64,000 nucleotides of DNA from a virus (lineage: Duplodnaviria > Heunggongvirae > Uroviricota > Caudoviricetes), in IMG/VR virus record IMGVR_UViG_3300028887_000105, one strand, 5' to 3'. The notes beneath the pieces were generated by a model, which had not been told where the DNA came from, searched no databases, and saw nothing but the letters and a program-made list of their open reading frames with translations. Shown piece by piece: positions 16,452 through 57,824 of the stretch. Each line of letters begins with the position of its first letter. The stretch's first letter is position 1. The position numbers and the translations under genes were made by a program.

Positions 16452-17354
16452 ATGAAGTGTGAAGGAAAAATATTGATCATATTACAAGGTCCTCCTTGTT
16501 CTGGAAAGTCCACATGGGCAAAGGAATATCAGGAAAAGTATCCTGATACATTGGTTGCCAATCGTGATACTATTCGTTATACGCTTGGCGAAGGTAAGTA
16601 TACAATGGACAGAGAAGATGAGGTCACTGAGATTGAAATGGCCCAGGTAAAGGGTGCAATGGGTGCTGGTAGAACTGTTGTTATTGACGACACTAACCTT
16701 AATCCTAAGTATCTTAAGCCTTGGTTAGACCTTGCTGAAGAAAAAGGCTATGAGGTAAGATATGAGAAATTGTACATACCTTATGGCGAGGCAATGGAAC
16801 GTTCTAAGAAGCGTAAGGAAGAAGGTGGTCTTTACATATCAAAAGATGTAATGCAGCGTTTCTATAAGAAATACTTCAAGGAAGAATTCGAGAAGGAAAT
16901 GACTGATTATCGTGTATTCAATATGAATAAGTATGACGATAAATTACCTAATTGTGTTATATGCGATTTAGACGGTACTATTGCTATGCATACGGGCCGA
17001 ACACCATTCGAGTGGGACAGATTATTCGAAGACCAAATTGATTGGCGTATGAAGGATATTTTGCGTGCCCTGGCTGCTACTGGTGCTGAGATTATATTCT
17101 TGACTGGTAGACAGGAATCTGTAAGAGAGAAGACAGAGGAATGGCTTACAGCCAATTTCGGTTGGAAACATCAGTTGATTATGCGTCCAGACAGAGAGTT
17201 TGGTAAGGGTAATGCTGTTAAGAAGGAACTATACGAAAAGTACGTTAAGGGTAAGTATAATGTAATCTGTGTGTTTGATGACGCAAATTATTGCGTTGAT
17301 ATGTGGCGCAATGAGGGATTGTTAACATTACAGGTTCAAGATTCAGATTATTAA
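16452..17354 (+). CDS. pnk: polynucleotide 5'-kinase / 3'-phosphatase (T4 Pnk-like)
   Basis: N-terminal P-loop GPPCSGKSTWA and DTNLNP; C-terminal HAD phosphatase DLDGT, LTGRQE, FDDA..VDMWR; collinear with T4 Pnk. Confidence 0.9.
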   Translation: MKCEGKILIILQGPPCSGKSTWAKEYQEKYPDTLVANRDTIRYTLGEGKYTMDREDEVTEIEMAQVKGAMGAGRTVVIDDTNLNPKYLKPWLDLAEEKGYEVRYEKLYIPYGEAMERSKKRKEEGGLYISKDVMQRFYKKYFKEEFEKEMTDYRVFNMNKYDDKLPNCVICDLDGTIAMHTGRTPFEWDRLFEDQIDWRMKDILRALAATGAEIIFLTGRQESVREKTEEWLTANFGWKHQLIMRPDREFGKGNAVKKELYEKYVKGKYNVICVFDDANYCVDMWRNEGLLTLQVQDSDY

Positions 17355-17356
17355 TT

Positions 17357-17545
17357 ATGGGTAAGATTATTACATTGTCATTGTTCATCATTGTAACGGT
17401 TATTTTTGTGGTTGATATTGCTTCAATTGTTTATAATTTATATCTCTCCGCAAAATATAAACATAATTACGAAAAACAGTTGTGGCCAGAATTGATATTA
17501 CTGATTTTCTGGTCCATATTATTATCAATTTTAATTGTGTATTAA
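17357..17545 (+). CDS. small membrane protein
   Basis: 62 aa, two TM helices. Confidence 0.45.
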   Translation: MGKIITLSLFIIVTVIFVVDIASIVYNLYLSAKYKHNYEKQLWPELILLIFWSILLSILIVY

Positions 17546-18013
17546 ATGGAAAAAGAAGAATTACTGAAAACAGTGAACGGCAAAAACGTCACGTGTGCCG
17601 TTGTTATGATTGATAAGGAAGGTTCAATCCTGGGATGTCACCCGACCAGCAGATCTGAGGTCTATGACTTCCCTAAGGGTTGTGCTGGATTTGCTGAGAA
17701 GGATGAGGATGCCGCAGTACGGGAACTACAGGAAGAAACCAGTATTCTATTAACGCCTAATGAGTTGGCTCGACTTGTTGATGGTGGTATACACCCACAT
17801 ACTAAAGAGAAACTTATTCACATTTTTATATTGAGGGTGGATGAATTACCAGATCCAGAATCATTGGTGTGTGAGTCATTCTATGAATACAAAGGGAAGA
17901 CATATCCTGAGGTAGATAGATATGCAATTATTACTAGGGATAAGAGAAATCTGTTCTTTGGGTGCCTGCAGGACAAATTTGAAATAATTGACAGTATAGC
18001 AAGTCTGATGTAA
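17546..18013 (+). CDS. Nudix hydrolase
   Basis: Nudix box GCAGFAEKDEDAAVRELQEETS (Gx5Ex7REUxEExGU). Confidence 0.8.
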   Translation: MEKEELLKTVNGKNVTCAVVMIDKEGSILGCHPTSRSEVYDFPKGCAGFAEKDEDAAVRELQEETSILLTPNELARLVDGGIHPHTKEKLIHIFILRVDELPDPESLVCESFYEYKGKTYPEVDRYAIITRDKRNLFFGCLQDKFEIIDSIASLM

Positions 18014-18017
18014 TATT

Positions 18018-18245
18018 ATGAATAAGTATTTATTGTGTTTCATTATAATATATGCAATAGGCTGGATTGCGTTTACGATTGGATTTCTAGTAATATGTAA
18101 TGATGCTAGACCAAAAAATCGTACTTTATGGAATTATGTACCACGTTCAATGTTGTTCTCGCTTATATGGCCATACATTCTTTATGAATATATTGCTCTT
18201 TGGGTAATACCTGAAATTAAAGAAAAAAGAAAGAAAAAAGTATGA
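18018..18245 (+). CDS. small membrane protein
   Basis: 75 aa, two TM helices. Confidence 0.5.
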   Translation: MNKYLLCFIIIYAIGWIAFTIGFLVICNDARPKNRTLWNYVPRSMLFSLIWPYILYEYIALWVIPEIKEKRKKKV

Positions 18246-18448
18246 AAAATGATCCAAAATATAACAAATGGCCATTTTGGAGTTATTGTGAAGACTGTAT
18301 ATATTTAAGAGAAGATTCATTATCTTGTGAAGAATATGGTTATTATAATTCTTGTGGTAATAGTGAATCTGAAAATTATTATGGCAGAGAAGATGATTTA
18401 AGTATACTCTATCCAGGAGAAAAATGTCCAGATAAAGAAATTGAATAA
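18242..18448 (+). CDS. hypothetical Cys-containing protein
   Basis: 68-aa ORF. Confidence 0.45.
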   Translation: MKNDPKYNKWPFWSYCEDCIYLREDSLSCEEYGYYNSCGNSESENYYGREDDLSILYPGEKCPDKEIE

Positions 18449-18451
18449 AGT

Positions 18452-18853
18452 ATGAGAAAGAAAAAAGAAGAAGTAACAGAAGAGTTGGTACAGGAAGTTA
18501 AGTATCCAACAGTAGAAGAATTGGTAATTGAGTGTATTAAACACGACATACCAGTAAACGGTGTTGACTATAATGGTAGAAACCTGGAGTATGAGATTGG
18601 CGGTTTCTCAAAGAGTGGTACTGGAAAACTTACCACTGATGAGGACGGTAATACAATCTTAGTTACCAGATATAATACAGTAAACGAAGTAAGATCCTTT
18701 GAGGATATTGCTGACGTTGCATATGATTGGTATTATAACTACCGAGACAGAGAACCATTTACACAGCCAGATTATAACTGGGCACCAATATTTGTTGAAA
18801 TGGGTCTAATTGAGGAACGAATTGTTAAGACCTACGTCCCTGTAGTTCAATGA
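18452..18853 (+). CDS. hypothetical protein
   Basis: 133-aa ORF. Confidence 0.55.
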   Translation: MRKKKEEVTEELVQEVKYPTVEELVIECIKHDIPVNGVDYNGRNLEYEIGGFSKSGTGKLTTDEDGNTILVTRYNTVNEVRSFEDIADVAYDWYYNYRDREPFTQPDYNWAPIFVEMGLIEERIVKTYVPVVQ

Positions 18854-18910
18854 ATAGAACGTGGGTTTCCTAAACCTAAGATCTGCGTTTGATTCGCAGC
18901 AGGGGTACTT

Positions 18911-18941
18911 AAAAAGAGAGGATTAATTCCTCTTTTTTTTG
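18911..18941 (+). terminator. rho-independent terminator
   Basis: AGAGAGG-ATTAATT-CCTCTTT hairpin + T8, followed by GTATAATTAC. Confidence 0.65.
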
Positions 18942-18974
18942 TATAATTACTACACTTTCTTTCTGTTCGGATCA

Positions 18975-19358: not shown

Positions 19359-19386
19359 TCTTTAATATAGAATTAAATTTATTGTT

Positions 19387-20202: not shown

Positions 20203-20231
20203 AATTGTGTAATTACGATGTGCCCTTATCA

Positions 20232-20744: not shown

Positions 20745-20745
20745 T

Positions 20746-25768: not shown

Positions 25769-27982
25769 ATGGATTACGAGAAAGCATATAAAGAATTAGA
25801 AACAAAAGCGAAGTCATTTATTGCTAGATGGGAAGGCATCGAAGCAATTAATTCTGAACTTGCATTGAAAGAACTAAAGGATATGTTCAATGAATTCACA
25901 GAGAGTGAGGATGAGAAAATAAGGAAAGAACTGATTTACTTTTTTCAAAATAGAAGAAAGCAACAAGAAGAAGATAAGTACTATCAAGGCGTAGAGATTC
26001 TTGACAGATGGATTTCTTGGCTTGAAAAGCAAGGTGAACAGAAACCTATCTCTAAATTTAAGGTCGGAGACCGCATATACGACAAAAGAGATAGTTACAA
26101 CAGAAATGTTATTAGAGAGGTAGGTAAGGATTACTACATAAATGCTTTTGGCCAGAAGATGGATATGGCTTATACCAATGCCAACTTTGAATTTCTAGAG
26201 CATTTAGAGGACGACCATATCGATAGTAAGCCTGCCGAGTGGAGTAAAGAGGATGAAGAAATATGTCAAGGAATAATAAACACACTTGAAGGCTTGTACG
26301 AATCTGCATCAAGCGACACGGTTAAGGCTTTATATGCTGCGAAAGCAGATTGGCTCAAACACCTCAAACCGAAACCGAGACCAGAGTGGAGTGAAGAGGA
26401 TGAAAGTGTAGATACTAGATTTGCGTTTTACACATACAAAGACGAACCTAATGTATTGTATTTGTCAAATGTTTTTGTTGAAGAATCTAGTCGAAACGAA
26501 GGTAAAGGTACCGAAATACTCAAAGTTGCCGAGCAAGTCGCTAAATCACTCAATAAGACTACAATTCGTCTGAAAGTTAAAAAGGAATCTGAAGCAAACG
26601 AGTGGTATTATAAGCATGGGTATTCACTTATACAATGTGAAGATGAATATAATTGGCTTGAAAAGAAAATAGAGCAGAAGCCTATTATGATTCAATGGAC
26701 TGGAGATAATCTCAAAGACGTAACTGAGTTTACTGGTTATTCTCCTAAATTCAGCGAGTGGTTTAAGAATTGGGAAGAATATGAAACTTATGTTCATTCT
26801 CACAACAATATCTTTAAGATGTTTAATGAAGATGGTTCTCACTACGAAGTTCCTGTCGGTGCATGGATTGTAAAAACTCCAGACGGACATAATGTTGCTT
26901 CAAAAGCAACTTATATTCAGAAGCCTGCTTCCAAGGTTGAACCAATGTTTAAGGTTGGTGATTGGATTATATCTGACAAGGCACATGAGGATTATCGTAT
27001 CTGTAAAATTATTGAGGTTGGTAACGGAAATTATAAAATAGAGTCGATACACGGATATTGTGGTTATAACGAATATAAGTATTTTGACAATATATATAGA
27101 CTTTGGACCATTGAGGATGCAAAACCAGGTGATGTACTTGTAGATAATCATCCGTTTATTTTTGAAAAAGTTGATACTTCTGGCCACTGTTATGCTTATT
27201 GCGGTTTAAATCCGTTTGATGAGTTTATGATAGAGTCTGAGGGAGAATCGGGAGAATGGACGTGGCATCCTAATGTACATCCTGCAACAAATGAACAGAT
27301 TAACTTGTTATTTCAGAAAATGGAAGAAGCAGGTTATGAGTGGGATTCCGAAAAGTTAAAGTTGGTCAAAATTGATCAAGAAGAAGAGGACACCCCAAAG
27401 TTTAAGGTAAAAAAAGGTGAATGGTACGTTTGTACTAATACTTTTGTATTAAAAGGTAAAATTATTGCAATTAAGGGACAAACATATCAATCAAAACAAC
27501 AAGATAATACTATAACTTGTGAAGATAATTGTCTTTTTATTGATAGACATGATGGTAAGGCATCAGACTATTTTCGTCTTTGGACTATCCAAGACGCAAA
27601 GCCTGGTGATATCCTTACTGACAAAGATGGTTGTACCTTCATCTTTAGAGAATTAGACGCTGATTTTGACGAAACTATGGCTATGGCTTATTGCGGCATT
27701 AACAGTGATGGTTATTTTATTCTTTGCGAAAAAGGTAGAGTTTGGACAGATCCAGAAGAGGTATATCCAGCAGATTCAGACGATCGTAATCATTTGTTTG
27801 ACAAAATGAGGGACGCTGGTTATGAATGGGATTCCACAAAACTTGAGTTAAAAGTGGTCAAACAGGAACCACCAGTTGTAAAAAATGAAAATAAAGAACG
27901 TTTTGAACGTATTGTTGGATTTCTAAGATATAAAGGGTTTGAAGATGATGCTGACTGGCTCGAATCATCGAAATTTCATTAA
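25769..27982 (+). CDS. mosaic protein: N-terminal helical domain (shared with 5183), GNAT acetyltransferase domain, KVG beta-domains and two ~95-aa tandem repeats
   Basis: GNAT motif A LSNVFVEESSRNEGKGTEIL (RxxGxG); repeats FRLWTIEDAKPGDVL...AGYEWDSEKLKL / FRLWTIQDAKPGDIL...AGYEWDSTKLEL; three FKVGD motifs. Confidence 0.7.
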   Translation: MDYEKAYKELETKAKSFIARWEGIEAINSELALKELKDMFNEFTESEDEKIRKELIYFFQNRRKQQEEDKYYQGVEILDRWISWLEKQGEQKPISKFKVGDRIYDKRDSYNRNVIREVGKDYYINAFGQKMDMAYTNANFEFLEHLEDDHIDSKPAEWSKEDEEICQGIINTLEGLYESASSDTVKALYAAKADWLKHLKPKPRPEWSEEDESVDTRFAFYTYKDEPNVLYLSNVFVEESSRNEGKGTEILKVAEQVAKSLNKTTIRLKVKKESEANEWYYKHGYSLIQCEDEYNWLEKKIEQKPIMIQWTGDNLKDVTEFTGYSPKFSEWFKNWEEYETYVHSHNNIFKMFNEDGSHYEVPVGAWIVKTPDGHNVASKATYIQKPASKVEPMFKVGDWIISDKAHEDYRICKIIEVGNGNYKIESIHGYCGYNEYKYFDNIYRLWTIEDAKPGDVLVDNHPFIFEKVDTSGHCYAYCGLNPFDEFMIESEGESGEWTWHPNVHPATNEQINLLFQKMEEAGYEWDSEKLKLVKIDQEEEDTPKFKVKKGEWYVCTNTFVLKGKIIAIKGQTYQSKQQDNTITCEDNCLFIDRHDGKASDYFRLWTIQDAKPGDILTDKDGCTFIFRELDADFDETMAMAYCGINSDGYFILCEKGRVWTDPEEVYPADSDDRNHLFDKMRDAGYEWDSTKLELKVVKQEPPVVKNENKERFERIVGFLRYKGFEDDADWLESSKFH

Positions 27983-31550: not shown

Positions 31551-32714
31551 ATGGAAAGTAAAAAAATTGTTATTACCAGCGTCATCGCTGTGTTTGTAAT
31601 CATTGTTCTCTGCTGCATTGGCAGTCTTGTTGAGGACGTAAAGAATGAAACTATCGTCGTTAACCAGGTACCTATTACAGGTACGATGGAAGTATGGAGC
31701 CAGCCTGGTATGTATGTCCAGAAGTTCGGCCACACCACGACCTATCACAAGACCGAGCAACTTTGGTTCGGTGCCCAGGAAAATGGTGAACCTATCAAGG
31801 TAATTTTTAACGACGCTTCTAATGGTTTGATTTATGGCTCACTTCGAGTAAAGTTGCCGACAGACCGAGAGCATATGCTTCGTATTCAAACCGATTACAA
31901 CGGTACGGACCGACTTATGAATGACCTTATCCGTCCTACTGTTACCAAGGTTGTATACGCTTCAGGCCCGCTTATGAGTGCATTCGAATCTTATGCAGAG
32001 AAGAAAAACAACTTGATCGAATACATTACGGACCAGTTGAACAACGGTGTTTACACTACCACAGTTCGCACAGTTGATGTTGTTGACCCGATTACAGGCG
32101 AGACCAAGACACAGAAAGTAGCCGCACTTATCCCCGACAGTTTGTCAGCAGGTGGATTCCGCCGTTCCGAGAGTTCTCCGTTTGAGTTCTACGGAATTGA
32201 GATTGGCCAGGTATCCGTTTCTGAGATTGACTATGAGGACAAAGTTAAACAGCAAATCGCACAGCAACAGGAGGCAAACATGTTGATCCAGACCTCTAAG
32301 TCCAAGGCTGCTGCAGCACAACAGGAAGCCATTCGTGCAGAGCAAGAAGGTAAGGCATCTGCAGCAAAGGCTAAGTGGGAGCAGGAGAAGATTAAGGCTA
32401 TCGAGGTTACAAAGGCTGAGCAGGAGCGTGAGGTTTCTCGACTTGCAGCAGAAAAGGCTGAGTTCGATAAGAAACGTATCATTGCCGAAGGTGAGGCAGA
32501 GGCTGCTGCTAACCGTGCAAAGGTTGCCGCAGGTTTGACCCCGCAGGAACGTGCCGAATGGGATTACAAGACCAGAGTTGGTGTTGCAGAGGCCGTTGCT
32601 AAGGTTACACTTCCGAAGGTTGTTATGGGCGGAAATGGACAGGGTGGAAACGCAACTATGGACATCATGAGTCTCAAGTTTGCTACCGACCTTGTTGAGA
32701 AACTTAGCAAGTAA
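31551..32714 (+). CDS. SPFH/band-7 (HflK/C-, prohibitin-like) membrane protein
   Basis: N-terminal TM helix, SPFH core, long Ala/Glu/Lys coiled coil (AEQEREVSRLAAEKAEFDKKRIIAEGEAEAAANRAK); GC clearly higher than genome background. Confidence 0.8.
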   Translation: MESKKIVITSVIAVFVIIVLCCIGSLVEDVKNETIVVNQVPITGTMEVWSQPGMYVQKFGHTTTYHKTEQLWFGAQENGEPIKVIFNDASNGLIYGSLRVKLPTDREHMLRIQTDYNGTDRLMNDLIRPTVTKVVYASGPLMSAFESYAEKKNNLIEYITDQLNNGVYTTTVRTVDVVDPITGETKTQKVAALIPDSLSAGGFRRSESSPFEFYGIEIGQVSVSEIDYEDKVKQQIAQQQEANMLIQTSKSKAAAAQQEAIRAEQEGKASAAKAKWEQEKIKAIEVTKAEQEREVSRLAAEKAEFDKKRIIAEGEAEAAANRAKVAAGLTPQERAEWDYKTRVGVAEAVAKVTLPKVVMGGNGQGGNATMDIMSLKFATDLVEKLSK

Positions 32715-32798: not shown

Positions 32799-33248
32799 AT
32801 GATACATGAAAAAATCAATGGGCTGATCATGGAATCAATGAAAGCCCGCAACGATATACGTACGGAATCACTCCGTGCAATCAAGACCGCTTTCCTTAAC
32901 TGGAAAACGGAAAAAGAAAACGTTGGCAAGGAACCTGACGAGGCTTCAGAGTTGCAGATGCTTAGGAAACTCGTTAAACAGCGCCAGGAGTCAATTGAAA
33001 TGTACAATGCTGCTGGCAGAACCGATTTGGCTGAAGCAGAGGCCGCACAGATTAACGTTATCAAAGAATTTCTTCCTGCTGAAGCAACAGAGGAAGACGT
33101 TCTTAAGGCTTTCAACGAGGTTCTTACTGATCTGGACATTGAGCCAGTAAAGAAGAATATGGGTGCCTTTGTAAAGAACATCAAGACTATCTTGCCTAAC
33201 GCAGACGGTAAGTTGGTAGCAAGTGTTGTACAAAAACAATTGCATTAA
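32799..33248 (+). CDS. GatB/YqeY-domain protein
   Basis: 149 aa; collinear with bacterial YqeY (KARND.R.ESLRAIK...QRQESIEMY..AGR.DLAEAE...EFLP...EE...........MGAFVK.....DGKLV..VV). Confidence 0.8.
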   Translation: MIHEKINGLIMESMKARNDIRTESLRAIKTAFLNWKTEKENVGKEPDEASELQMLRKLVKQRQESIEMYNAAGRTDLAEAEAAQINVIKEFLPAEATEEDVLKAFNEVLTDLDIEPVKKNMGAFVKNIKTILPNADGKLVASVVQKQLH

Positions 33249-35782: not shown

Positions 35783-36349
35783 ATGACAGTAATATACGGA
35801 AATCGTGGAGATATGGACACCCTTATGCTACCTAGCATATGGGAGAGATTAGACAATGTAAATGTTGTTGAAATCGGTCTTAGAACGTTTCACTTCGAAG
35901 ATAGAGTAGCAGAGGCAATAGCCAATGAGGATGATACTCTTATTCTTTGCGGCCACGGAACGTCCTGGGGCCTTCTACACCCCAATTTCCATACTGGACA
36001 GTATATTATTCACGAGAACAATTATCGTGACATACACGCAAGAAATTTGATATGTGTATGGTGCCATGCTGCTGACTTTGCTGAGAGATATCACGTAAAC
36101 GGTTTTTTTAGTTCAATGTTCATATCGAACGTTAATGAAGCACAAGAGCACCTTGGTAATGGTACAGACCTTACACAAGATCAGATTGGAGACTCGGAAT
36201 TGATATTCTGCAGAAGACTTAATGCACTTCTTAGGGATGGTACACCACTTAACGAGTGGGTGCCTACTTTGAAGAGTTTAATGAATGAAAATAATATGGT
36301 GGAGAGATATAATTATAATGGTTTAAAATTTTTTGAGAATTATGAATGA
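35783..36349 (+). CDS. hypothetical protein with His/Cys dyad arrangement (LILCGHG ... LICVWCHAAD), possible clan-CD-like peptidase fold
   Basis: 188 aa; spacing of GHG and hydrophobic-strand + Cys resembles caspase-like dyad; weak. Confidence 0.5.
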   Translation: MTVIYGNRGDMDTLMLPSIWERLDNVNVVEIGLRTFHFEDRVAEAIANEDDTLILCGHGTSWGLLHPNFHTGQYIIHENNYRDIHARNLICVWCHAADFAERYHVNGFFSSMFISNVNEAQEHLGNGTDLTQDQIGDSELIFCRRLNALLRDGTPLNEWVPTLKSLMNENNMVERYNYNGLKFFENYE

Positions 36350-37811
36350 GATTTTTACACAAAGTGAAAACATCAAGCACGAGTACTGTTGTACTATCGT
36401 GCGCATCGGCGAGATCAAGCCAATCGAGGGCAGGGATCGAATTGTACAGACACTGGTAAACGGTTTGTCTATGGTAATTCGTAAGGACCAGGTAAAAGAG
36501 GGTGACCTTATGATTTACGCGATGAACGAAACACAGTTGTCCGAGAAGTTCCTTGCTGCTAATAACCTGTATGCTATCGACTGTTACGAAAAGAACAGTA
36601 ATGCCCCAGAGGTGGGTCAATTACTATTCGACGGTAAGAACGATGAGGCAAAGGAACACGTTGGTTTCTTCAATAAGTATGGCCGAGTGAAATTGATTAG
36701 ACTTGGTGGTGTACCTTCATTCGGATACCTCTTCACTGTTAACGAACTTGCAAAGGTATATCCTGAGGTTCTTAATGTTAACCTTGAGGAACTGGTAGAC
36801 ACCGACTTCGATACCGTATGCGGTGAGGAATTTGTAAAGGTATATATGCCACCTGTAAAGGAAGCAACACCTCGTGGTTCAAAGGAAGCAAAAATGCAGC
36901 GTAAACTCGCTAAGTTTGATCGTATGCTTCCAGGCCAGTTTGCTTTCCACTATGAGACAAAGCAACTCGCAAGGTACATTTCTTACATCAAGCCTACCGA
37001 CGTGGTAACCATTTCTGTTAAGATGGACGGTACTTCATTTATTGTTGGTAATATCCTTGTTAAGTTCCCTAAGTGGGATGGTTTCTACAAGAAGATATTC
37101 CCATATCTTCCTAAGTTCCTACAATTCACTCGCGAGGATTATGATATTGTTTATTCTTCACGTAAGGTGATTATCAATAAGGATATTAATCCTAACAAGG
37201 GTGAAGGATGGGATGGTGGTTCTGTACAGAAGGCCATTACTGTAGTTGCCGATCTTATCAGGGACTATGTTCCTAAGGATATGACTATCTACGGTGAGAT
37301 TGTTGGTTATTACAATCAGACTAACAAGGCTATCCAAACTCGTGGTGGTAAGGATTATGACTATGGTTGCCCAGTGGGTACCAACAGGTTTATGCCTTAT
37401 CGAATTGTTACAAAGAACGAGGATGGTACAAATCACGAATGGAACGTTTGTGAGGTTTACGATTGGACTATCAATTTCATGAAGGAACATGAGGACCTTG
37501 CTAAGTACGTACAACCAATCGTTATCGTTTACCACGGTACGCTTGCTGACCTTTATCCACAACTTGACGTTGAGAATCATTGGCACGAGAATGTTCTTGA
37601 GGCTATGAAGAACGACAAGAAGACACTTGGTCTTGAGGTATATGAGCCAATGTGTAAGGATAAGGTATGGCGTGAAGGTGTAGTACTCCGTGTTGACGAC
37701 GATATGGTTAACGAAGCCTTCAAGTTGAAGAGTGTTAAATACTCTGAGAAGGAACGTGAGGATTACGACAAGGGTGTCATTGACCAGGAAGCAATGGAAG
37801 GATACCTTTAA
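36342..37811 (+). CDS. RNA ligase (covalent nucleotidyltransferase superfamily) with N-terminal OB-like domain
   Basis: track start 36333 is TTG, ATG at 36342; motif I ISVKMDGTS (KxDG), III TIYGEIVG, IV REGVVLRV (EGxxxR/K), V FKLKSVK; ~200-aa N-terminal OB-like domain as in Rnl5-type ligases; GC above background. Confidence 0.8.
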   Translation: MNEIFTQSENIKHEYCCTIVRIGEIKPIEGRDRIVQTLVNGLSMVIRKDQVKEGDLMIYAMNETQLSEKFLAANNLYAIDCYEKNSNAPEVGQLLFDGKNDEAKEHVGFFNKYGRVKLIRLGGVPSFGYLFTVNELAKVYPEVLNVNLEELVDTDFDTVCGEEFVKVYMPPVKEATPRGSKEAKMQRKLAKFDRMLPGQFAFHYETKQLARYISYIKPTDVVTISVKMDGTSFIVGNILVKFPKWDGFYKKIFPYLPKFLQFTREDYDIVYSSRKVIINKDINPNKGEGWDGGSVQKAITVVADLIRDYVPKDMTIYGEIVGYYNQTNKAIQTRGGKDYDYGCPVGTNRFMPYRIVTKNEDGTNHEWNVCEVYDWTINFMKEHEDLAKYVQPIVIVYHGTLADLYPQLDVENHWHENVLEAMKNDKKTLGLEVYEPMCKDKVWREGVVLRVDDDMVNEAFKLKSVKYSEKEREDYDKGVIDQEAMEGYL

Positions 37812-37885: not shown

Positions 37886-38413
37886 ATGGGATACGAAATT
37901 TCATTTAAACCTACAGAAGAGGCGATGGCTAAATTAAAGCCCTGGGGTGATTCATACCAATCATCAACCAAGAAACAACGAATTGAGTTGATTGCATATT
38001 GTATGAGAAAGTCGGATGAACCGACAATAAAAATATATGATAACATTAATTTCTATCTTAGATTTTTGAAAGAAAGTGTTAGAACCGACGAACGCGCATT
38101 TGCTTATAAAAGATGGAAAGAAAACGAAGAAAAAGAAATATGGTATTGCGGTTGGGAATTTTCCCGTCCTTCCAGTGTCGACATTGATGAGGTTATTGAA
38201 TTTACAACACAGGAATTAACAATTTTAACCGCTGTGGTTGAAACACCAGACTATTTTGAAAATAACGATAAATTCTACGAAAAGTATCGTGAAGTGATAA
38301 AAAGAATTGACGATTTCATTGACACAATGGAAGAAGTTACTATACATGAAATAATTGAAGAACTTGACGAATTTAAAGAGAAATACGAAGAAGAAAATGA
38401 TCAAGAAGTATAG
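37886..38413 (+). CDS. hypothetical acidic protein
   Basis: 175-aa ORF. Confidence 0.5.
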   Translation: MGYEISFKPTEEAMAKLKPWGDSYQSSTKKQRIELIAYCMRKSDEPTIKIYDNINFYLRFLKESVRTDERAFAYKRWKENEEKEIWYCGWEFSRPSSVDIDEVIEFTTQELTILTAVVETPDYFENNDKFYEKYREVIKRIDDFIDTMEEVTIHEIIEELDEFKEKYEEENDQEV

Positions 38414-39311
38414 AATAATAGGGGATATTCATGGTAGAACTAATTGGCATAAGTTAGTAGAACCATTTGACGAAGAAACAATGTACATCTTCGTCGGGGA
38501 TTATGTGGACCCATACTATCATCTGGAAGATGTTACATTTGATCAAATGTTTTCTGAAATGGAATCTATCTTCAAAATGAAACAGGAACATCCTGATAAT
38601 GTAATTATTCTGCTTGGTAACCACGATCTTCAATATATTATAAAATATGGAGAAACAAGTCGTTATGAAATAAGCATCAGTAAAAGGAACAAATTGTTCA
38701 ACTTTTTTGACGAGAATTTGAAATATACAGATGGTGTTGCGTATCAAATTAACAACAAATATCTTATCACGCACGCTGGTGTTACTAAAGAGTGGTATGA
38801 AACATACTTTGGCGAATTTAAAAAAGACACAACGCTTGAAGAAATAGTTAAAAACATAAATGAACTGTGGGAAAACAACAAGTCTGCATTTTATTTTTGT
38901 GGTAAATTCTCAGATTCTTACGGTGTATCGGAATCTCAAGGACCATTATGGATACGACCTGAAACATTATGGTATGCAAATTTATTTGGCTTTGACAGTG
39001 GTATAATTCAAATTGTTGGACATACACCATATGAATCAGATTTCCCTGGTTTGGCACCTAATGATGATAATCGTATAGCAACAATTGGCACCGTAAAAAT
39101 ACCAGCAGACAAAGAAGAAATCGAAAATGATTTATATTTTAATGACGGTACAAATATTTGTCAACGAATTGATAATAAACCATTACATGTAGATATTATA
39201 CTCGTTGATTGTTTACGTCGGGAAACCGCTTGTCTCGACATTGGTGCTGAAACTAACGGTTGGAAACAAGTATATTTTGGTGATGTTGAAAATAAAAAAA
39301 TTAAATGGTAA
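38397..39311 (+). CDS. PPP-family Ser/Thr-phosphatase-like metallophosphoesterase (lambda PPase / ApaH-like)
   Basis: GDIHGR, GDYVDPY (GDxVDRG-like), GNHD, HAGV, GHTP motif series. Confidence 0.8.
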   Translation: MIKKYRIIGDIHGRTNWHKLVEPFDEETMYIFVGDYVDPYYHLEDVTFDQMFSEMESIFKMKQEHPDNVIILLGNHDLQYIIKYGETSRYEISISKRNKLFNFFDENLKYTDGVAYQINNKYLITHAGVTKEWYETYFGEFKKDTTLEEIVKNINELWENNKSAFYFCGKFSDSYGVSESQGPLWIRPETLWYANLFGFDSGIIQIVGHTPYESDFPGLAPNDDNRIATIGTVKIPADKEEIENDLYFNDGTNICQRIDNKPLHVDIILVDCLRRETACLDIGAETNGWKQVYFGDVENKKIKW

Positions 39312-39925
39312 ATATGGAATATAATTATAAATTTACAAGTGGTAAGAATATTTGGTTTACATCTGATATTCATTTTAATCATAAAAACATAATTAAGTAC
39401 TGCCAACGTCCCTGGGAAACAGTAGACGAAATGAATGAGGCGTTAATTGCCAACTGGAATTCGGTTGTTAAAAAAGACGACACGGTATTTATACTCGGAG
39501 ACATTGGATTTGGAAGTGTTACTAAGACAGTAGAATTGGTGTCACGATTAAACGGGCATAAAATTCTATTACCTGGTAATCATGATAGGGAATTCATTCA
39601 TAAAGAAGAGGTTAGAGCGTTATTTGACGACATCCTACCATTGGCATATATTAAAATTGAAGAATTTCATATATATTTATGTCACTTCCCATTCTTATGT
39701 TTCGACGGTGCATACAGTGGTGAAAAAGCAACTTGGCAATTGTTTGGCCACTGCCACTCAAAGAAAGGTTCATTTGGATTGGATTCACAAAGATTGATTC
39801 ATTGTTATCCTACACAATATGATGTAGGTGTTGACAATAACAATTATTTTCCAATCTCATTTGAAACGGTTAAGGAAAAAATTTATGATCAGCAACAAAG
39901 TTTAAATTTGATTAGAGAATGTTAA
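39305..39925 (+). CDS. calcineurin-like metallophosphoesterase
   Basis: SDIHFNH, LGDIGFG, PGNHD, GHCH motifs. Confidence 0.75.
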   Translation: MVNMEYNYKFTSGKNIWFTSDIHFNHKNIIKYCQRPWETVDEMNEALIANWNSVVKKDDTVFILGDIGFGSVTKTVELVSRLNGHKILLPGNHDREFIHKEEVRALFDDILPLAYIKIEEFHIYLCHFPFLCFDGAYSGEKATWQLFGHCHSKKGSFGLDSQRLIHCYPTQYDVGVDNNNYFPISFETVKEKIYDQQQSLNLIREC

Positions 39926-41285: not shown

Positions 41286-42026
41286 ATGAAGATTTGCGCT
41301 ATATCTGATTTACACGGAACGCTCCCCAGTATTGGGGAGTGCGACGTGGTTTTCATTTGCGGTGATATCTTTCCGACCAGGATTGATACGATGACAAAAG
41401 AATGCCACGAGTGGTTCAACGGTCCATTTGCCGATTGGATCAATGAGTTACCTTGCAAACAAGTTTTTCTTATTGCTGGTAATCACGATTTTTATTTGGA
41501 AAGCGAATTGTCATACTTCGGTGAAAATGAACAACACTATACTGAATTAAGCCGAATTAAAAGAATTATTCGTGAAAACGAGAAAATGAAGGATAAACTT
41601 GTGTACCTTCAAGATGAAAGTTATACACTTGAAAACGGTATGAAAGTTTATGGTACACCTTGGTGTATTAGTCCTAAAGGATTTGCTTTCATTGATAGTT
41701 CAGGAAAACCATATGAAGAAATTCCAATGGATTGTGACATCTTGTTAGTACATCAGCCACCAAGGGTAGGTAAATTAGGGTGTTCAAATCCTAATACACA
41801 ATATGAAGTTAACTATGCAAGTAAATCACTTGCAAATGCAATTGCTGACAGACATATCAAGTATGTGTTCTGTGGGCATATTCATAGTGGAATTCACGGT
41901 GGTATATACGTAGATGATACAAAAGAAACATTATATCCGTTCTACAAGGATACTTTGTATTATAACGTATCAATTAAAGATGAAGAATATAAGGTTCGTT
42001 ATGAACCAACTTTTGTAATGATATAA
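41286..42026 (+). CDS. calcineurin-like metallophosphoesterase
   Basis: SDLHG, CGDIFP, AGNHDFY, HQPP, CGHIHSG motifs. Confidence 0.75.
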   Translation: MKICAISDLHGTLPSIGECDVVFICGDIFPTRIDTMTKECHEWFNGPFADWINELPCKQVFLIAGNHDFYLESELSYFGENEQHYTELSRIKRIIRENEKMKDKLVYLQDESYTLENGMKVYGTPWCISPKGFAFIDSSGKPYEEIPMDCDILLVHQPPRVGKLGCSNPNTQYEVNYASKSLANAIADRHIKYVFCGHIHSGIHGGIYVDDTKETLYPFYKDTLYYNVSIKDEEYKVRYEPTFVMI

Positions 42027-46217: not shown

Positions 46218-46775
46218 ATGAAAGTATTTTTTGATACAGAATTTACTGGTTTACACAAAAATACAACGCTTATTAGCCTTGGTTGTGTAGACGAAGACGG
46301 TAGATCTTTTTATGCTGAGTTTGCCGATTATGACAGGAACCAATGCGATGACTGGATTAAGAAACACGTATTGAAAAACCTCAAGTTTGACCGTGGTGAT
46401 AGTATTGTAGGTCAACTTAATTCTGATGAAGTAACTGAAATTTACGATGACAAGGAACACGTAAAAGAGGCCCTTGCAGAATGGTTGTCAGTATATGACG
46501 AAGTTCAATTAGTTTCTGACGTATGCCATTACGATATGGTATTGTTAATTGACTTGTTTGGTAGTGCATTTGATTTACCAAAGAACGTTTGTCCGTCCTG
46601 TCACGATATTAACCAGGACATTGCTGAACATTACGGTTGTTCTGAAAGAGAGGCGTTTGATAAGTCTCGTGAAGGTATCTTGGCTGATTATGAATTGGAA
46701 ATTAGTGGGGACAAACATAATGCATTGTATGATGCGAAAGTAATTAAACGTTTGTACTTATACGTTTTAAAATAA
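46218..46775 (+). CDS. DEDDh 3'-5' exonuclease (DnaQ/RNase T/oligoribonuclease-like)
   Basis: FFDTEFTG (Exo I), middle Asp motif, HNALYDAKV (Exo III with His). Confidence 0.75.
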   Translation: MKVFFDTEFTGLHKNTTLISLGCVDEDGRSFYAEFADYDRNQCDDWIKKHVLKNLKFDRGDSIVGQLNSDEVTEIYDDKEHVKEALAEWLSVYDEVQLVSDVCHYDMVLLIDLFGSAFDLPKNVCPSCHDINQDIAEHYGCSEREAFDKSREGILADYELEISGDKHNALYDAKVIKRLYLYVLK

Positions 46776-49204: not shown

Positions 49205-49402
49205 ATGACTAAGGAAGATAGAGTAGAATTACAAAAGGCTGTATCTAATTTTCTTTACTCGTTTTCGAGCGAGGAAACACGAATGTATGCGCCGTGGGCA
49301 TTTGATTCAACTGGTTTTCAAAAGCCACTTTCAATTGCTGAATTTGCGGCTACATGGATGGAAAGACGTTTGTTAAACAAAATTAAAAATAAAATAAAAT
49401 GA
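49205..49402 (+). CDS. hypothetical protein
   Basis: 65-aa ORF. Confidence 0.4.
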   Translation: MTKEDRVELQKAVSNFLYSFSSEETRMYAPWAFDSTGFQKPLSIAEFAATWMERRLLNKIKNKIK

Positions 49403-50223
49403 AATTTAAAAGTCTAGAAGAAAAGTGTTTGTATTACAGAGGTTTAACTGATTATAAACTTCTGCCTAACAGTAATATTCTTGTCATGCTTGACGGTAAA
49501 AACTTTAGTCGTCTCATCAAGAATAACTTTAAGAAACCGTTTGATGATGATTTTATCAGAATGATGAACAACACGGCTAAGTTCCTGTGTGAAAACGTAC
49601 AGGGATGTAAGTTTGCATATGTTCAGTCTGATGAGATCTCATTGCTCATTACCGATTATGACACACCAGAGACCGACTTGCTGTTTGGTGGTAGACTTTG
49701 CAAGATTGAATCTATTCTTGCTTCCCTGGCTACGTCAGAGTTCAATCGCCAATTCATTAAGTATCACTTGTTTGAGAAGAGAGAAAATTGGTCTGGTGTT
49801 GGTTTCGCAGGCCTTTCTGATCAACTTGATAAAATGAAGATGGCTCAGTTTGACTGCAAGGCTTGGACTGTACCTAATTTTAACGATGCATTTGCTTGGT
49901 TCCTATATCGTCAGATTGACTGTATCCGTAACTCAAAGCAGCAGACTGCTCAAACCTATGTTCCACACAAAGAACTGGTTAAAAAAGATACTGATCAACA
50001 AATTGCAATTTGTAGAGAAAAAACCGATATTGATTGGAATGATTTTGCCAACCAATACAAATATGGTAGATTTGTTTACAAGGTAGAAAAGGAACTTACT
50101 ACTACTCTTCCTGACGGTAAGGAAATCACTTATTTCAGAAACAAATTCGAGGCTGTACCAGCGTTTGAATTGACGAAGGAAGGAAATAAAGACAAGTTTA
50201 TCAATCTTATTTTCGAATCATGA
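49399..50223 (+). CDS. Thg1-like 3'-5' nucleotidyltransferase (tRNA-His guanylyltransferase family, TLP)
   Basis: ILVMLDGKNFSRL...KPFDDDFIRMMNNTAKFL...FAYVQSDEISLLI aligns with Thg1 VVRLDGRNFHRF...KPND...AYGQSDEYSFVF incl. catalytic Asp residues. Confidence 0.85.
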   Translation: MKFKSLEEKCLYYRGLTDYKLLPNSNILVMLDGKNFSRLIKNNFKKPFDDDFIRMMNNTAKFLCENVQGCKFAYVQSDEISLLITDYDTPETDLLFGGRLCKIESILASLATSEFNRQFIKYHLFEKRENWSGVGFAGLSDQLDKMKMAQFDCKAWTVPNFNDAFAWFLYRQIDCIRNSKQQTAQTYVPHKELVKKDTDQQIAICREKTDIDWNDFANQYKYGRFVYKVEKELTTTLPDGKEITYFRNKFEAVPAFELTKEGNKDKFINLIFES

Positions 50224-53944: not shown

Positions 53945-53950
53945 TCGTAT

Positions 53951-54043: not shown

Positions 54044-54108
54044 TTCTAAAGATAACAATTAATTAAAGATATAGCCAACATGTATATCGTTACCAAAAAT
54101 TTTATATT

Positions 54109-54590: not shown

Positions 54591-54593
54591 AAT

Positions 54594-55361: not shown

Positions 55362-55365
55362 AGAT

Positions 55366-55629
55366 ATGAACGAGAAACTGGATATTAAAAAGGCTCTTGA
55401 ATTATCTTGTGAGATATTTTTAAATCTTGCCAGTCCTAAGATGTGGGGTTTAAAACCCGAAAAGGGTTGGTGTAGACCTTGTGTAATTGAACACGAGGGT
55501 GAATATTACTGTTTAAGAAACCCGAACGAAGAGGTTTATTTCGAAGAGGCTTATTCTGATTTTACAGAAGATATAAAAAACGGAGTTTATGTTCCGACTG
55601 GAATAAAAGTAAATGAATCATATTTATAA
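55366..55629 (+). CDS. hypothetical protein
   Basis: 87-aa ORF. Confidence 0.45.
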   Translation: MNEKLDIKKALELSCEIFLNLASPKMWGLKPEKGWCRPCVIEHEGEYYCLRNPNEEVYFEEAYSDFTEDIKNGVYVPTGIKVNESYL

Positions 55630-55877
55630 TGGAAAAACCAATAGATAGACTATACAAATTTCTCCAAGATAACCACCCTGGTTATGACGAGTGTATGGTA
55701 TGCAAATGTAAAGAAAAAGATTATGAAGGAAACGATAAAATTGAATACCTAATAATCGAAAAACATGAATGTGCTAGTGGAGATTTATTTCTCATTAACA
55801 CACGTTTGTGGTATGATTACGATTTCAAGTGGAGAGACGGAGATCCTAATTGGGAAATAATTTTTAAAAGTAAATAA
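55629..55877 (+). CDS. hypothetical Cys-containing protein
   Basis: 82-aa ORF. Confidence 0.45.
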   Translation: MEKPIDRLYKFLQDNHPGYDECMVCKCKEKDYEGNDKIEYLIIEKHECASGDLFLINTRLWYDYDFKWRDGDPNWEIIFKSK

Positions 55878-55878
55878 T

Positions 55879-56085
55879 ATGAAAGTAAGAGTAATTACAA
55901 GAGGTCCATTATTTTATTCTCAGTATTACAATGAGGATAAATCAAAATGGTGTGAAACACATAGGCACGATGGTGCTTCTATTCAAAATCAGTTTAGTAC
56001 GATACAGGAGGCTATTGAAGAATGCAAATGGTTTGCAGAAAATAGTAACCAACCTAAAGTTGTTTGGGAAGGAGTAGTAGCATGA
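55879..56085 (+). CDS. hypothetical protein
   Basis: 68-aa ORF. Confidence 0.45.
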   Translation: MKVRVITRGPLFYSQYYNEDKSKWCETHRHDGASIQNQFSTIQEAIEECKWFAENSNQPKVVWEGVVA

Positions 56086-56369
56086 AATATACAACATTTG
56101 AAATAAAAGAAGTGGAGATAGACGTTGATTTTCAAAAGATATACGACTATATCTCCAGTGAAGATCACACAGATGATATTAATATCATAGGCGAAGATTT
56201 CGGTGATAATTTCCAACACTATATGTGGCAAGCCCTTGGCATTGAAATGGATAATGGATTCCTTGGTAGAGTACCGTCTGAATTTGATGGTCGTTATCTT
56301 GAACTCAATGATTTGGAAGATAAAATCTGTGACGATTTCTACGAGTGGTTAAAAGAAAACAAGAAGTAA
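56082..56369 (+). CDS. hypothetical acidic protein
   Basis: non-overlapping ATG inside track ORF 56064. Confidence 0.45.
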   Translation: MKYTTFEIKEVEIDVDFQKIYDYISSEDHTDDINIIGEDFGDNFQHYMWQALGIEMDNGFLGRVPSEFDGRYLELNDLEDKICDDFYEWLKENKK

Positions 56370-56370
56370 T

Positions 56371-56721
56371 ATGGAACGAGTAATAGCAGCAGCATATAAG
56401 GTAAAACCTGAATTTGTATGCCATAAAAAACATGGCATAGCCAAGGTTGGTACTAATAGAACTGAGGTGGATGATATCTATCAGTGCAGAATTGGTCGGC
56501 ACCACGCAGAGATACTTCATATATTTGGTAAAGAAGTTGATCATCATACAGATGGATTCTATACTTCTTATGGTAGATATGTAGACAGAGAAGAAGCGGC
56601 AAAGATTGCTATTGCTGCAGGACAAATAAAAGAATGTCACTATTGGGGTCATAACAAACTTGATTCCAGTGACCTTTTTGATTTAGATTACGATGGTTAT
56701 CCAATAGAATTTGATGAATAA
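56371..56721 (+). CDS. hypothetical His-rich protein
   Basis: 116 aa; GRHHAEILH...DHHTDG. Confidence 0.5.
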   Translation: MERVIAAAYKVKPEFVCHKKHGIAKVGTNRTEVDDIYQCRIGRHHAEILHIFGKEVDHHTDGFYTSYGRYVDREEAAKIAIAAGQIKECHYWGHNKLDSSDLFDLDYDGYPIEFDE

Positions 56722-56728
56722 ATGAATT

Positions 56729-57163
56729 ATGAAAACAAGTGAACTTCAAAACGAAACCAGTTCTTTGATAAAAGAACATAGCAAATTGTATAAATTAATT
56801 GACGAAAAAGAAGAAGCCATTACAGTTAAAGCAAGGGAATTACTAAATGAATTGCGTAAACTGGATAATTGGGAGGTAATGATTGACGAGTGTAAAGACC
56901 ACTATGAACGATTTCCTGACGAATTCTTTGATTGGTGTCATGTAGAATTTGAAAAAAATAAGGTTTATTTTGTGAAGAATTATAGTGATGACGATGACGA
57001 TTATTATGTTCTTACTATTGATTTGTCTAAGCCTTTAGAAGATCAAATAAAGGAAAAACAAGAAAAGATAAAAAAAGACGAGGAAAAAGAAAAAGAAAAA
57101 ATTAAGGCAAAAGAACTTGCCGAATTAAACCGTTTAAAAGAAAAATATGAAACATTACGATAG
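56729..57163 (+). CDS. coiled-coil hypothetical protein
   Basis: 144 aa; KEKEKIKAKELAELNRLKEKYE. Confidence 0.5.
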   Translation: MKTSELQNETSSLIKEHSKLYKLIDEKEEAITVKARELLNELRKLDNWEVMIDECKDHYERFPDEFFDWCHVEFEKNKVYFVKNYSDDDDDYYVLTIDLSKPLEDQIKEKQEKIKKDEEKEKEKIKAKELAELNRLKEKYETLR

Positions 57164-57824
57164 TATACCGAGAATACAAGATGATGGCACTTTGAAAGGT
57201 GAAATGGTTGTAGGTTATAACAAACTGGATGGCCAAAACTTTTGTGTAGCATATAATTGTAGAAAGAAAACCTGGGGTCCTTACGGTTCCAGGACAGTGA
57301 CTGTAGATGAAAACTCTGAACAGTTTGGAGAAACTGTAAAGTTCTTTAACAACTCTGATTACAAGGAGATTCTGGAAAGAATTGTGAAGGAGTTTTCTGG
57401 AAAGGGTGACGTGTTTAACGGTGTTGATGAAATCACATTCATATTTGAATGGTATGGATGGAATTCATTTGCTGGGAAGCATAAAGAAGGTGATACGATG
57501 AACCTGGCTCTTATTGATGTATTCCTCAAAAAGAGAGGTTATATTGAACCAAAGAATTATGAAATGTGTTTCAGATATTGTGGTATTGAACTTCCCGATC
57601 TAATTTATTCAGGGCCGCTAAATAGCGAAATTATTGAAAAAGTTCAGAACAACGACTGGACACAACCTGATTGTTGGAATCCACACGTTCACGAAGGTGT
57701 TGTATTTAAAAGAACAACATTGCTTAAGGGTCAGCGTAGACCGTCTGTAAAGGTAAAAACAAAGTGGTGGATAGATAAACTTCATTCAATGTATAGTGAA
57801 GAGGAATGTAAAAAACTTGAGTAA
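57147..57824 (+). CDS. Rnl2-like adenylyltransferase-domain RNA ligase (stand-alone NTase domain)
   Basis: motif I YNKLDGQN (KxDG), III ITFIFEWYG, IV HEGVVFKR (EGxxxK), V VKVKTK; size/layout like T4 Rnl2 N-terminal domain. Confidence 0.75.
   Translation: MKHYDSIPRIQDDGTLKGEMVVGYNKLDGQNFCVAYNCRKKTWGPYGSRTVTVDENSEQFGETVKFFNNSDYKEILERIVKEFSGKGDVFNGVDEITFIFEWYGWNSFAGKHKEGDTMNLALIDVFLKKRGYIEPKNYEMCFRYCGIELPDLIYSGPLNSEIIEKVQNNDWTQPDCWNPHVHEGVVFKRTTLLKGQRRPSVKVKTKWWIDKLHSMYSEEECKKLE

Follow-up and report, generated by a model that had tools for sequence, protein, structure and literature searches.

Dispersed genes for predicted RNA end-processing enzymes in a probable counter-defence arm of a distant Lak megaphage relative

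The 64,000-nucleotide stretch of viral DNA analyzed here (the window; IMG/VR record IMGVR_UViG_3300028887_000105, Caudoviricetes), which corresponds to positions ~52,967-116,966 of the 253,946-bp metagenomic contig k141_2048293 (ENA ERZ27257203), was found to encode four predicted RNA end-processing enzymes, namely a polynucleotide kinase/phosphatase (Pnk), a large and a small RNA ligase, and a Thg1-like protein (TLP). Their retention in the very distant Prevotella Lak megaphages and the company that their homologues keep in other phages suggested that the window probably represents an accessory arm for counter-defence, along which the RNA end-processing enzymes are dispersed, in a jumbo phage that is a distant relative of Lak. 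An earlier note, made from the sequence alone, had picked out the same four open reading frames (ORFs), all of which were present on the + strand at full length with their motifs kept:

16452-17354 (+): predicted bifunctional polynucleotide 5'-kinase/3'-phosphatase of the T4 Pnk type, 300 amino acids (aa); Pfam, PHROG, alignment to Protein Data Bank (PDB) structures
36342-37811 (+): predicted Rnl5-type RNA ligase with an N-terminal OB domain and a nucleotidyltransferase domain, 489 aa; Pfam, PHROG, profile search, AlphaFold2 (AF2)/Foldseek
49399-50223 (+): Thg1-like protein (bacterial TLP type), 274 aa, for which templated 3'-5' nucleotidyltransferase activity is predicted; Pfam, PHROG, PDB
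57147-57824 (+): predicted minimal RNA ligase of Rnl2-like fold, nucleotidyltransferase domain only, 225 aa; Pfam, AF2/Foldseek

Identity of the four enzymes

Pfam assigned the product of ORF 16452 to HAD_PNKP (9.5e-38, with the entire profile, positions 1-143, covered) and AAA_33 (2.7e-18), and PHROG placed it in phrog_505, annotated as 'polynucleotide kinase' (3.6e-78). Its residues 8-300 were aligned over the full length with residues 4-301 of T4 Pnk (1LTQ; E 1.2e-31), and the top solved match, aligned end to end, was Pnkp1 of Capnocytophaga (4XRP, 4.8e-37). The kinase has a Walker A P-loop, GPPCSGKST, at residues 12-20, and its NRDtiR stands in register with the T4 NRDdyR containing the catalytic Asp and Arg (D35 and R38 in T4); DLDGT, aligned to T4 D165-V-D-G-T, marks a C-terminal HAD phosphatase of the DxDxT type. 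We concluded that the protein is an intact Pnk of the T4 type, as the earlier note had proposed, and activity on RNA ends is predicted for it. Close relatives of this Pnk were absent from the IMG/VR pattern search. Two adjoining phrog_14949 paralogues (217 and 214 aa; 14560-15869, +) are situated just 5' of the gene, and this pair is among the few window genes kept in the Lak megaphage Lak-C1 (~503.2-503.7 kb).

Recognition of the two ligases required profiles and predicted structures, since PDB searches with the single sequences were uninformative (E 0.15-0.24). The large ligase starts at the ATG at 36342, the mechanical ORF opening at a TTG at 36333. Pfam located RNA_ligase at residues 225-470 (4.2e-7) and the PHA02142 OB domain at residues 20-66 (2e-6), and PHROG returned phrog_968 (1.6e-38). 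The motifs KMDG (K227), EIVG (E319), EGVVLR (E445), and KLK (K461/K463) were invariant among 42 homologues; the KxDG and KxK motifs and the N-terminal OB domain given in the earlier note were thereby borne out, while its EGxxxK has to be corrected to EGxxxR at motif IV. A profile of the 42 homologues matched a sole PDB family, the nick-sealing RNA ligase of Naegleria gruberi (NgrRnl; 1.7e-5), with the OB domain and motifs I, IV, and V in colinear order. In a Foldseek search with the AF2 model (pLDDT 89), NgrRnl occupied all of the top 13 ranks (E ~1e-14, ~470 columns aligned), and REL1, T4 Rnl2, archaeal Rnl3, and T4 Rnl1 ranked below it. The large ligase shows the architecture of Rnl5, i.e., an N-terminal OB domain, a C-terminal nucleotidyltransferase domain, and no C-terminal appendage, and shares motifs I, III, IV, and V with the Rnl5 enzymes NgrRnl (5COT) and DraRnl of Deinococcus. 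It differs from NgrRnl in its length (489 versus 340 aa), the identity being 15-17% and TM ~0.3-0.45, and this poor superposition probably arises from domain orientation and insertions. Judging from the sequence and the model, the protein is an Rnl5-type ligase with ~150 inserted residues, for which sealing activity is predicted and whose specificity could be shifted by the insertions. A 188-aa ORF without family match (35783-36349, +), the end of which overlaps the large-ligase start, is 41% identical to a Lak-C1 gene (513.4-513.9 kb) that lies away from the ligase there.

The small ligase was likewise assigned to Pfam RNA_ligase (5.4e-8) and to phrog_548 (2.5e-14). Its motifs I, III, IV, and V (K26-L-D-G, E101/G104, E183-G-V-V-F-K, and K202-V-K204) were invariant in 50 diverse homologues. 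The AF2 model (pLDDT 93.8) was found by Foldseek to resemble the adenylyltransferase domain of T4 Rnl2 (2HVR/1S68, 1e-9 to 1e-8) and trypanosome REL1 (9e-9), with query-normalized TM of 0.61-0.65 for the best fold matches 2HVR, 1XDN, and 1S68. In T4 Rnl2, a C-terminal helical domain (residues 244-329) serves for substrate binding. The small ligase shares the nucleotidyltransferase fold and motifs with T4 Rnl2 and REL1, but it lacks this domain and terminates 21 residues past motif V in two short helices, as does the 203-aa 'deviant' Rnl2 of Diplonema, DpRNL (PMC4599027). It therefore falls outside Rnl2 in this respect, and on sequence and modelled fold we describe it as Rnl2-like with the nucleotidyltransferase domain only, in agreement with the label 'minimal Rnl2-like' that the earlier note had given it. 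Clustering at 50% identity divides the family, made up of standalone proteins of ~200-225 aa, into ~420 clusters.

That one or both of these proteins might instead be an ATP-dependent DNA ligase or a capping enzyme is suggested by the covalent nucleotidyltransferase fold common to all these enzymes and by the RNA_ligase scores in Pfam (30.7 and 33.6 bits), which are barely over the cut-off of 27. In the fold searches, however, RNA ligases were far ahead: for the large ligase the best DNA ligase and capping enzyme appeared at 1e-4 and 1e-2, and for the small one DNA ligases appeared at best at 1e-4 to 1e-3. DNA ligases and capping enzymes have an OB domain at the C-terminus that is missing from both models, and the PHROG families of both are annotated as RNA ligase. 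We thus regard such an identity as extremely improbable, and it was ruled out on the fold ranks.

ORF 49399 was matched by Pfam Thg1 (7.5e-28) and phrog_4717 (2.8e-53), inside the Thg1/TLP group in which the earlier note had put it. Its top solved relative was the TLP of Bacillus thuringiensis (BtTLP; 4KGK, 1.7e-26), and the matches to eukaryal Thg1 were weaker (1e-8 to 1e-6; Candida 2e-8, human 2e-6). D32 (LDGKNF) and S77-D78-E79 (QSDEIS) stand in register with BtTLP and Candida Thg1 and were invariant in 36 homologues, so that the metal-binding carboxylates (D29, D76, and E77 in human Thg1) are all in place. Where Candida Thg1 has DCHINNLYN, the phage protein has DCIRNSKQ, and the HINNLYN motif is thus missing. 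The protein is accordingly a TLP of the bacterial type and not a eukaryotic Thg1, with 3'-5' addition predicted from the sequence; more than 2,000 close relatives occur in metagenomes. The profile searches proposed in the earlier note therefore confirmed HAD_PNKP, Thg1, and, for both ligases, RNA_ligase.

Retention and linkage in other phages

The window has a G+C content of ~35%, and its + strand carries every sizeable ORF. A 10-kb piece of the window, used as a nucleotide query, had no match among 50,697 phage records, and relatives were therefore sought at the protein level. The closest deposited phages by protein were the Prevotella Lak megaphages (~540 kb, versus 254 kb for the present contig), and numerous relatives closer than Lak were found on metagenomic contigs of 250-470 kb. 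TAG is recoded in Lak phages. For the window the standard code was adequate: TAG read-through gained little coding, ORF lengths equalled those of homologues, and TAG was rare as a stop (of the 77 ORFs with ~120 aa or more, 5 end in TAG and 56 in TAA). This region thus shows no need of TAG recoding, unlike its relatives.

All 158 window ORFs were used as tblastn queries against the whole Lak-C1 genome (MK250029.1), which was put together from 12 fetched pieces. A homologue was found for just 13 of them, and these included all four toolkit genes, a YqeY gene, and two metallophosphoesterase genes; the chance that all four genes fall among the 13 is ~3e-5 (hypergeometric, calculated by hand). In other words, the four genes were kept, and over 90% of the ORFs around them have no Lak-C1 homologue. 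TLP, the large ligase, the two metallophosphoesterases, and the small ligase are at 403.9, 407.5, 410.7 and 419.9, and 446.9 kb, respectively, of Lak-C1, and the TLP-ligase-metallophosphoesterase order is held within ~17 kb. TLP and both ligases were found in 15 of 15 Lak records, with identities of 52-54% for TLP, 30-34% for the large ligase, and 58-60% for the small ligase. Across the megaphage clade, the small ligase is unusually well conserved, with 58-90% identity and a constant length of ~225 residues. Physical grouping alone is, by comparison, weak evidence, as uniform placement of four genes would bring them into 41 of at least 254 kb with a crude p of ~4*(41/254)^3 = 0.02.

Gene proximity was then counted within a 10-kb radius in 82 viral loci, each with a TLP gene at its centre, and in 80 loci built likewise around a small-ligase gene. 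An Rnl5-type ligase is located directly 3' of TLP in loci L034, L040, and L056, is 2.6 kb off in Lak-B-like contigs, and occurs near the small ligase in 13 of the 80 loci. Other combinations include a metallophosphoesterase, TLP, RlaP, and Pnk grouped in L022; RlaP, a small ligase, and TLP inside 3 kb in L013; and a small ligase, TLP, and a Pnk-like gene inside 9 kb in L012. In L008, from a 473-kb relative, a small ligase, KptA, and TLP are grouped, with KptA/Tpt1 (9149-9721) directly 5' of TLP and, another 2-5 kb 5' of KptA, two small genes that resemble RNA ligases. On contigs that carry both genes (genomes of 130-550 kb), the gaps between TLP and the small ligase were 0.9, 2.2, 3.1, 6.9, 7.0, 12.9, 14.1, ~43, 62, 63, and 87 kb, with a median of ~13 kb (hand calculation). 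Unbiased clustering of the neighbours in the 82 TLP loci brought out NAMPT (22), PRPP synthetase (19), Macro (12), YqeY (11), HAD_SAK_2 (11), RlaP (7), NADAR (6), and NUDIX (6), as well as Nuc_deoxyri_tr2. The same repertoire has been described for RNA-repair/NAD+ conflict islands (PMC7824862), and the TLP neighbourhoods of other phages, with their RNA ligases, RlaP, Pnk, KptA, HAD phosphatases of the Swiss-army-knife type (HAD_SAK), and genes for NAD+ salvage, thus support a role in RNA repair and counter-defence. A 166-aa family without Pfam match (cluster c4; L062 4875-5375) also stands near TLP in 14 of the 82 loci, one ORF 5' of it in L040, and is absent from the window.

The earlier note knew of no description of this combination as a phage module; this claim fails, because the linkage, the jumbo-phage toolkits, and the Lak enzymes have all been published. 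Bacterial neighbourhoods of Thg1, Pnk, RNA ligase, and in some cases Macro were described in 2010 and proposed to repair tRNA, including by ligation of 5'-App ends, with a hand-off of the 5'-phosphate from Pnk to Thg1, and a jumbo-phage Thg1 gene was noted in the same work (Anantharaman et al., PMC2904730). A later survey of jumbo phages reported RNA repair sets with several specialized ligases, Pnk-HAD, calcineurin-like phosphatases, RlaP, a CCA-adding enzyme, and sporadic Thg1 (Iyer, Anantharaman, Krishnan, Burroughs, Aravind 2021, Viruses 13:63, PMC7824862). For the Lak genomes, a tRNA-His 5'-guanylyl-adding enzyme, a cyclic-nucleotide phosphodiesterase, and a tRNA-repair RNA ligase have been listed (Devoto et al., bioRxiv 10.1101/356790), and Lak-C1 carries homologues of all four genes.

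The 254-kb contig bears two ligases, a Pnk-HAD, a TLP, and three metallophosphoesterases, and the window thereby contains a toolkit as defined in PMC7824862; the agreement extends to NUDIX, SLOG/YAcAr, and NAD+ salvage nearby. It differs in that the present phage is outside the sample of that survey, that its ligases are Rnl5-type and minimal Rnl2-like in place of the emphasized Rnl1/Rnl2 pair, and that Pfam annotation of the window revealed no third ligase and no RlaP, CCA-adding enzyme, RtcB, 2H, Macro, or KptA. The bacterial loci (PMC2904730; 4KGK) share the TLP subtype, the partners, and the 5'-phosphate logic, but here the genes are phage-borne and dispersed and, as noted, the window has no Macro domain. 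With T4 Pnk and Rnl1, which restore PrrC-cleaved tRNA-Lys, the window shares the heal-then-seal logic and a Pnk that is related to the T4 enzyme over its full length and has all the catalytic motifs; Rnl1 (2C5U) was, however, a lower-ranked fold match for both ligases (1e-6 for the large and 3e-4 for the small). As for the Pnkp1-Rnl-Hen1 complex of Capnocytophaga gingivalis (4XRP/4XRU), its Pnkp1 is the best solved Pnk match and its phylum is that of the presumed phage hosts; in contrast, neither Hen1 nor any methyltransferase was detected by Pfam on the called genes of the window, and its ligase was matched by neither phage ligase in sequence searches of all PDB chains. The window is therefore a good example of a toolkit of a described kind, with a gene set already in published Lak genomes, and not a new concept. 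Of modest interest are the non-Rnl1 nature of its ligases, Rnl5-type and minimal Rnl2-like, and the strong conservation of the minimal one.

A possible repair pathway and its alternatives

Bacterial immunity includes a growing list of tRNA-cleaving systems (PrrC/RloC, PARIS, retrons, Cas12a3, Cas13, and Schlafen-like nucleases); known phage countermeasures consist chiefly of substitute tRNAs and of T4 Pnk with Rnl1. On the basis of the known functions of the families, and with gene identity and retention taken from sequence and structure comparison, the following pathway can be proposed. Host nucleases would cut tRNA or other structured RNA, leaving 2',3'-cyclic-phosphate/5'-OH ends or 3'-OH/5'-phosphate nicks, and Pnk would turn the former into ligatable 3'-OH/5'-phosphate ends. 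The two ligases would seal the breaks, presumably favouring those in tRNA stems or otherwise held in a duplex over an open anticodon-loop cut, because both share the architecture of duplex-nick sealers and not that of Rnl1. TLP might refill lost 5' nucleotides of the acceptor stem with the 3' strand as template, starting from a 5'-monophosphate that Pnk could supply, and the nearby metallophosphoesterases and YqeY may assist in 3'-end clean-up and tRNA binding. The parallel drawn in the earlier note with the T4 Pnk/Rnl1 response to PrrC does not extend to the ligases, neither being Rnl1-type and both resembling sealers of duplex nicks (Rnl5, Rnl2). Its wider idea of repair as counter-defence is plausible from sequence comparison and fits the phage neighbourhoods; the part concerning tRNAs trimmed at the 5' acceptor end has no counterpart among the defences identified.

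Defence nucleases with suitable targets have been described, as retron Eco2 nicks double-stranded tRNA acceptor stems and PARIS is said to target anticodon stems (PMC12916289). One might speculate that the Lak-like clade keeps a multi-lesion tRNA repair tuned to stems and not to the anticodon loop, in which the ligases reseal nicks of the TOPRIM-type systems (retron Eco2, PARIS), TLP rebuilds 5' acceptor strands, and the minimal ligase uses 5'-adenylylated RNA made by TLP during activation or works with YqeY in trans. Taken as a whole this scenario is quite improbable; if true, it would entail a previously unseen hand-off from a 3'-5' polymerase to a ligase.

Several observations weigh against a dedicated repair arm. 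The four genes span 41 kb with ~70 unrelated ORFs intervening, and their immediate neighbours are orphan ORFs without informative match. At least one of Pnk and the two ligases was within 10 kb of TLP in just 18 of the 82 loci, which is not far above the expectation from co-occurrence in the same genome, and L009 has no repair gene at all within this distance. The Pnk homologue of Lak-C1 (26% identity, at 131.6 kb) is ~270 kb from TLP, the maximum for a circular genome, unlike the Pnk of the window, which shares the 41-kb stretch. The 'module' of the earlier note is thus not a physical one, and the four genes are a loosely linked toolkit in a larger arm and not one operon. Without the substrate-binding domain of Rnl2, standalone activity of the small ligase is uncertain; the ORF directly 3' of it (57826-58218) had no significant Pfam or PHROG match, and no flanking family that could supply such a domain as a conserved partner recurred in more than 5 of the 80 small-ligase loci. 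The nick of Eco2 falls in the 3' strand (PMC12916289), and no defence system trimming 5' nucleotides of tRNA was identified, so that the natural substrate of TLP is the weakest link of the pathway. A literature search likewise found no paper characterizing a phage TLP.

The enzymes could alternatively serve housekeeping, with TLP adding G-1 to phage tRNA-His or editing 5' mismatches, and Pnk and the ligases, joined by KptA in some relatives, splicing intron-containing tRNAs. The Lak paper (bioRxiv 10.1101/356790) puts the guanylyl-adding enzyme among tRNA-modifying genes and reports tRNA introns, and in the loci analyzed here KptA/Tpt1, an enzyme of the tRNA-splicing pathway, is directly 5' of TLP in L008 and TLP is beside tRNA gene arrays in L015, L055, L056, L057, and L060. 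The tRNA-His of Lak-C1 (MK250029.1, 86012-86085) also had a poorly paired acceptor in all registers tried or needed a bulged T; it could be either an atypical tRNA or a pseudo-tRNA. In L015, L055, and L057, however, the tRNA-His adjoining TLP encodes G-1 and C73, the bacterial arrangement, and G-1 addition is unneeded there because G-1 is genomic; the TLP is, moreover, of the bacterial type and lacks the HINNLYN of G-1-adding eukaryal Thg1. By a crude fixed-register parse, 80 of 97 phage tRNAs had 7/7 acceptor pairs, most of the other 17 resembled register artefacts, and no systematic 5' mismatches in need of editing emerged. The sole tRNA of the window is free of introns and perfectly paired in its acceptor stem, and the TLP neighbours are dominated by NAD+/repair conflict genes and not by tRNA-modification genes. 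On balance, we consider a housekeeping role unlikely.

The scatter of the genes over 41 kb among unrelated orphan ORFs, and distances between homologues in relatives that range from 0.9 to ~270 kb, would suit four independent accessory genes with no shared pathway, e.g., a Pnk acting on DNA ends or nucleotide-linked signals and ligases acting on other RNAs or RNA-DNA junctions. Both DNA and RNA are substrates for enzymes of the Pnk family, and Rnl5 and Rnl2 seal nicks with an RNA 3'-OH strand; such substrates fit non-tRNA roles. On the other hand, all four genes were kept across a very deep divergence over which just ~8% of the arm ORFs persist, their homologues are repeatedly adjacent in varied combinations in unrelated phage lineages, and the same linkage occurs in bacterial operons (PMC2904730), all of which makes independence of the four unlikely. 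We thus favour, with fair confidence, the reading of the window as an accessory, counter-defence arm with dispersed RNA end-processing enzymes. The retention of TLP and two non-Rnl1 ligases by widespread gut megaphages over a deep divergence suggests that repair of other types of lesion matters in the gut. The phage setting, with its clear partners and selective pressure, is a good place to probe the role of bacterial-type TLPs, and the practical value of the window is that of a compact candidate gene set.

Other genes of the arm

The further features of the window that may bear on RNA repair are as follows:

17546-18013 (+): NUDIX hydrolase, 155 aa; Pfam NUDIX 1.7e-7
18836-18908 (+): tRNA-Arg(CCT), the single tRNA gene of the window; ARAGORN
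32799-33248 (+): YqeY (GatB-like) domain protein, 149 aa, candidate accessory; Pfam YqeY 9e-28
38397-39311 (+): PPP/calcineurin-type metallophosphoesterase, 304 aa, candidate accessory; Pfam Metallophos, weak PP2B-type match at 1e-5
39305-39925 (+): aq_1665-like metallophosphoesterase, 206 aa, candidate accessory; Pfam Metallophos, PDB 1XM7 at 3.6e-9
41286-42026 (+): MPPED2-like metallophosphoesterase, 246 aa, candidate accessory; Pfam Metallophos, MPPED2 3RL4 at 1.9e-10
46218-46775 (+): Rv2179c-like 3'-5' exoribonuclease, 185 aa; Pfam Rv2179c-like 2.1e-9, RNase_T 9.6e-6

The PPP-type metallophosphoesterase gene is 0.6 kb 3' of the Rnl5-type ligase gene; in Lak-C1 and Lak-B2 its homologue is 2 kb off the ligase, 7 of the 82 loci have a homologue within 10 kb of TLP, and a role in healing RNA 3' ends is a candidate function. 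The aq_1665-like gene is kept in Lak-C1, and its homologues are directly 5' of TLP in L088 and one ORF off in L022. The MPPED2-like protein is possibly a cyclic-nucleotide or cyclic-phosphate diesterase, and its family was found near TLP in 5 of the 82 loci and near the small ligase in 6-7 of the 80. No match of the metallophosphoesterases to RNA 3'-phosphatases of the CthPnkp type was obtained, and they are retained as candidates only.

The YqeY gene is 3 kb 5' of the large-ligase gene and has its Lak-C1 homologue at 306.6 kb. YqeY is among the commonest neighbours of phage TLP (10-11 of 82 loci), as in L062-L064, L087, L015, L034, L040, and L056, and adjoins it in L076; we know of no prior description of this link, and a part for YqeY as a tRNA-binding partner is speculative. 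The NUDIX gene is 0.2 kb 3' of Pnk, and NUDIX genes were near TLP in 6 of the 82 loci; its tie to the toolkit is uncertain. The same holds for the Rv2179c-like exoribonuclease, no homologue of which was found in the 82 TLP loci. The tRNA-Arg(CCT), with 7/7 acceptor pairs and no intron, is possibly a substitute tRNA. None of ten ORFs flanking the four genes and of ten other large orphan ORFs had a Pfam or PHROG match that pointed to RNA repair.

Viewed as a whole, the arm has the appearance of a region for counter-defence and nucleotide/NAD+ conflict. A 70-aa ORF (1979-2191, +) matched the Tad2-like Thoeris anti-defence family over the curated cut-off (PF11195, 4.7e-7), which supports the counter-defence reading of the arm, and Pfam also marked a YAcAr SLOG protein and a nucleoside deoxyribosyltransferase in the window. 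An NAD+ salvage cluster follows at ~120.2-126.3 kb of the source contig (L091 13634-19728), 3-9 kb past the end of the window; it is composed of GmrSD_N and, at 6-9 kb, NAD synthase, NAPRTase, and a second NUDIX. An adenylosuccinate synthase gene is situated 5' of the window (L090 2032-3117).

Five paralogues of ~120-150 aa are arranged in tandem at 60035-62314 (+; starting at 60035, 60436, 60843, 61280, and 61955), with a sixth copy at 6658-7059, and the tandem paralogues cluster with genes in seven IMG/VR loci. A 359-aa ORF (12193-13272, +) belongs to the PHROG transposase family phrog_10081 (6.4e-20) and may be a remnant of a mobile element. Two further proteins are one of 737 aa (25769-27982, +) with a central GNAT acetyltransferase domain (1.7e-6) and one of 387 aa (31551-32714, +) of the SPFH/Band-7 family (3e-7).

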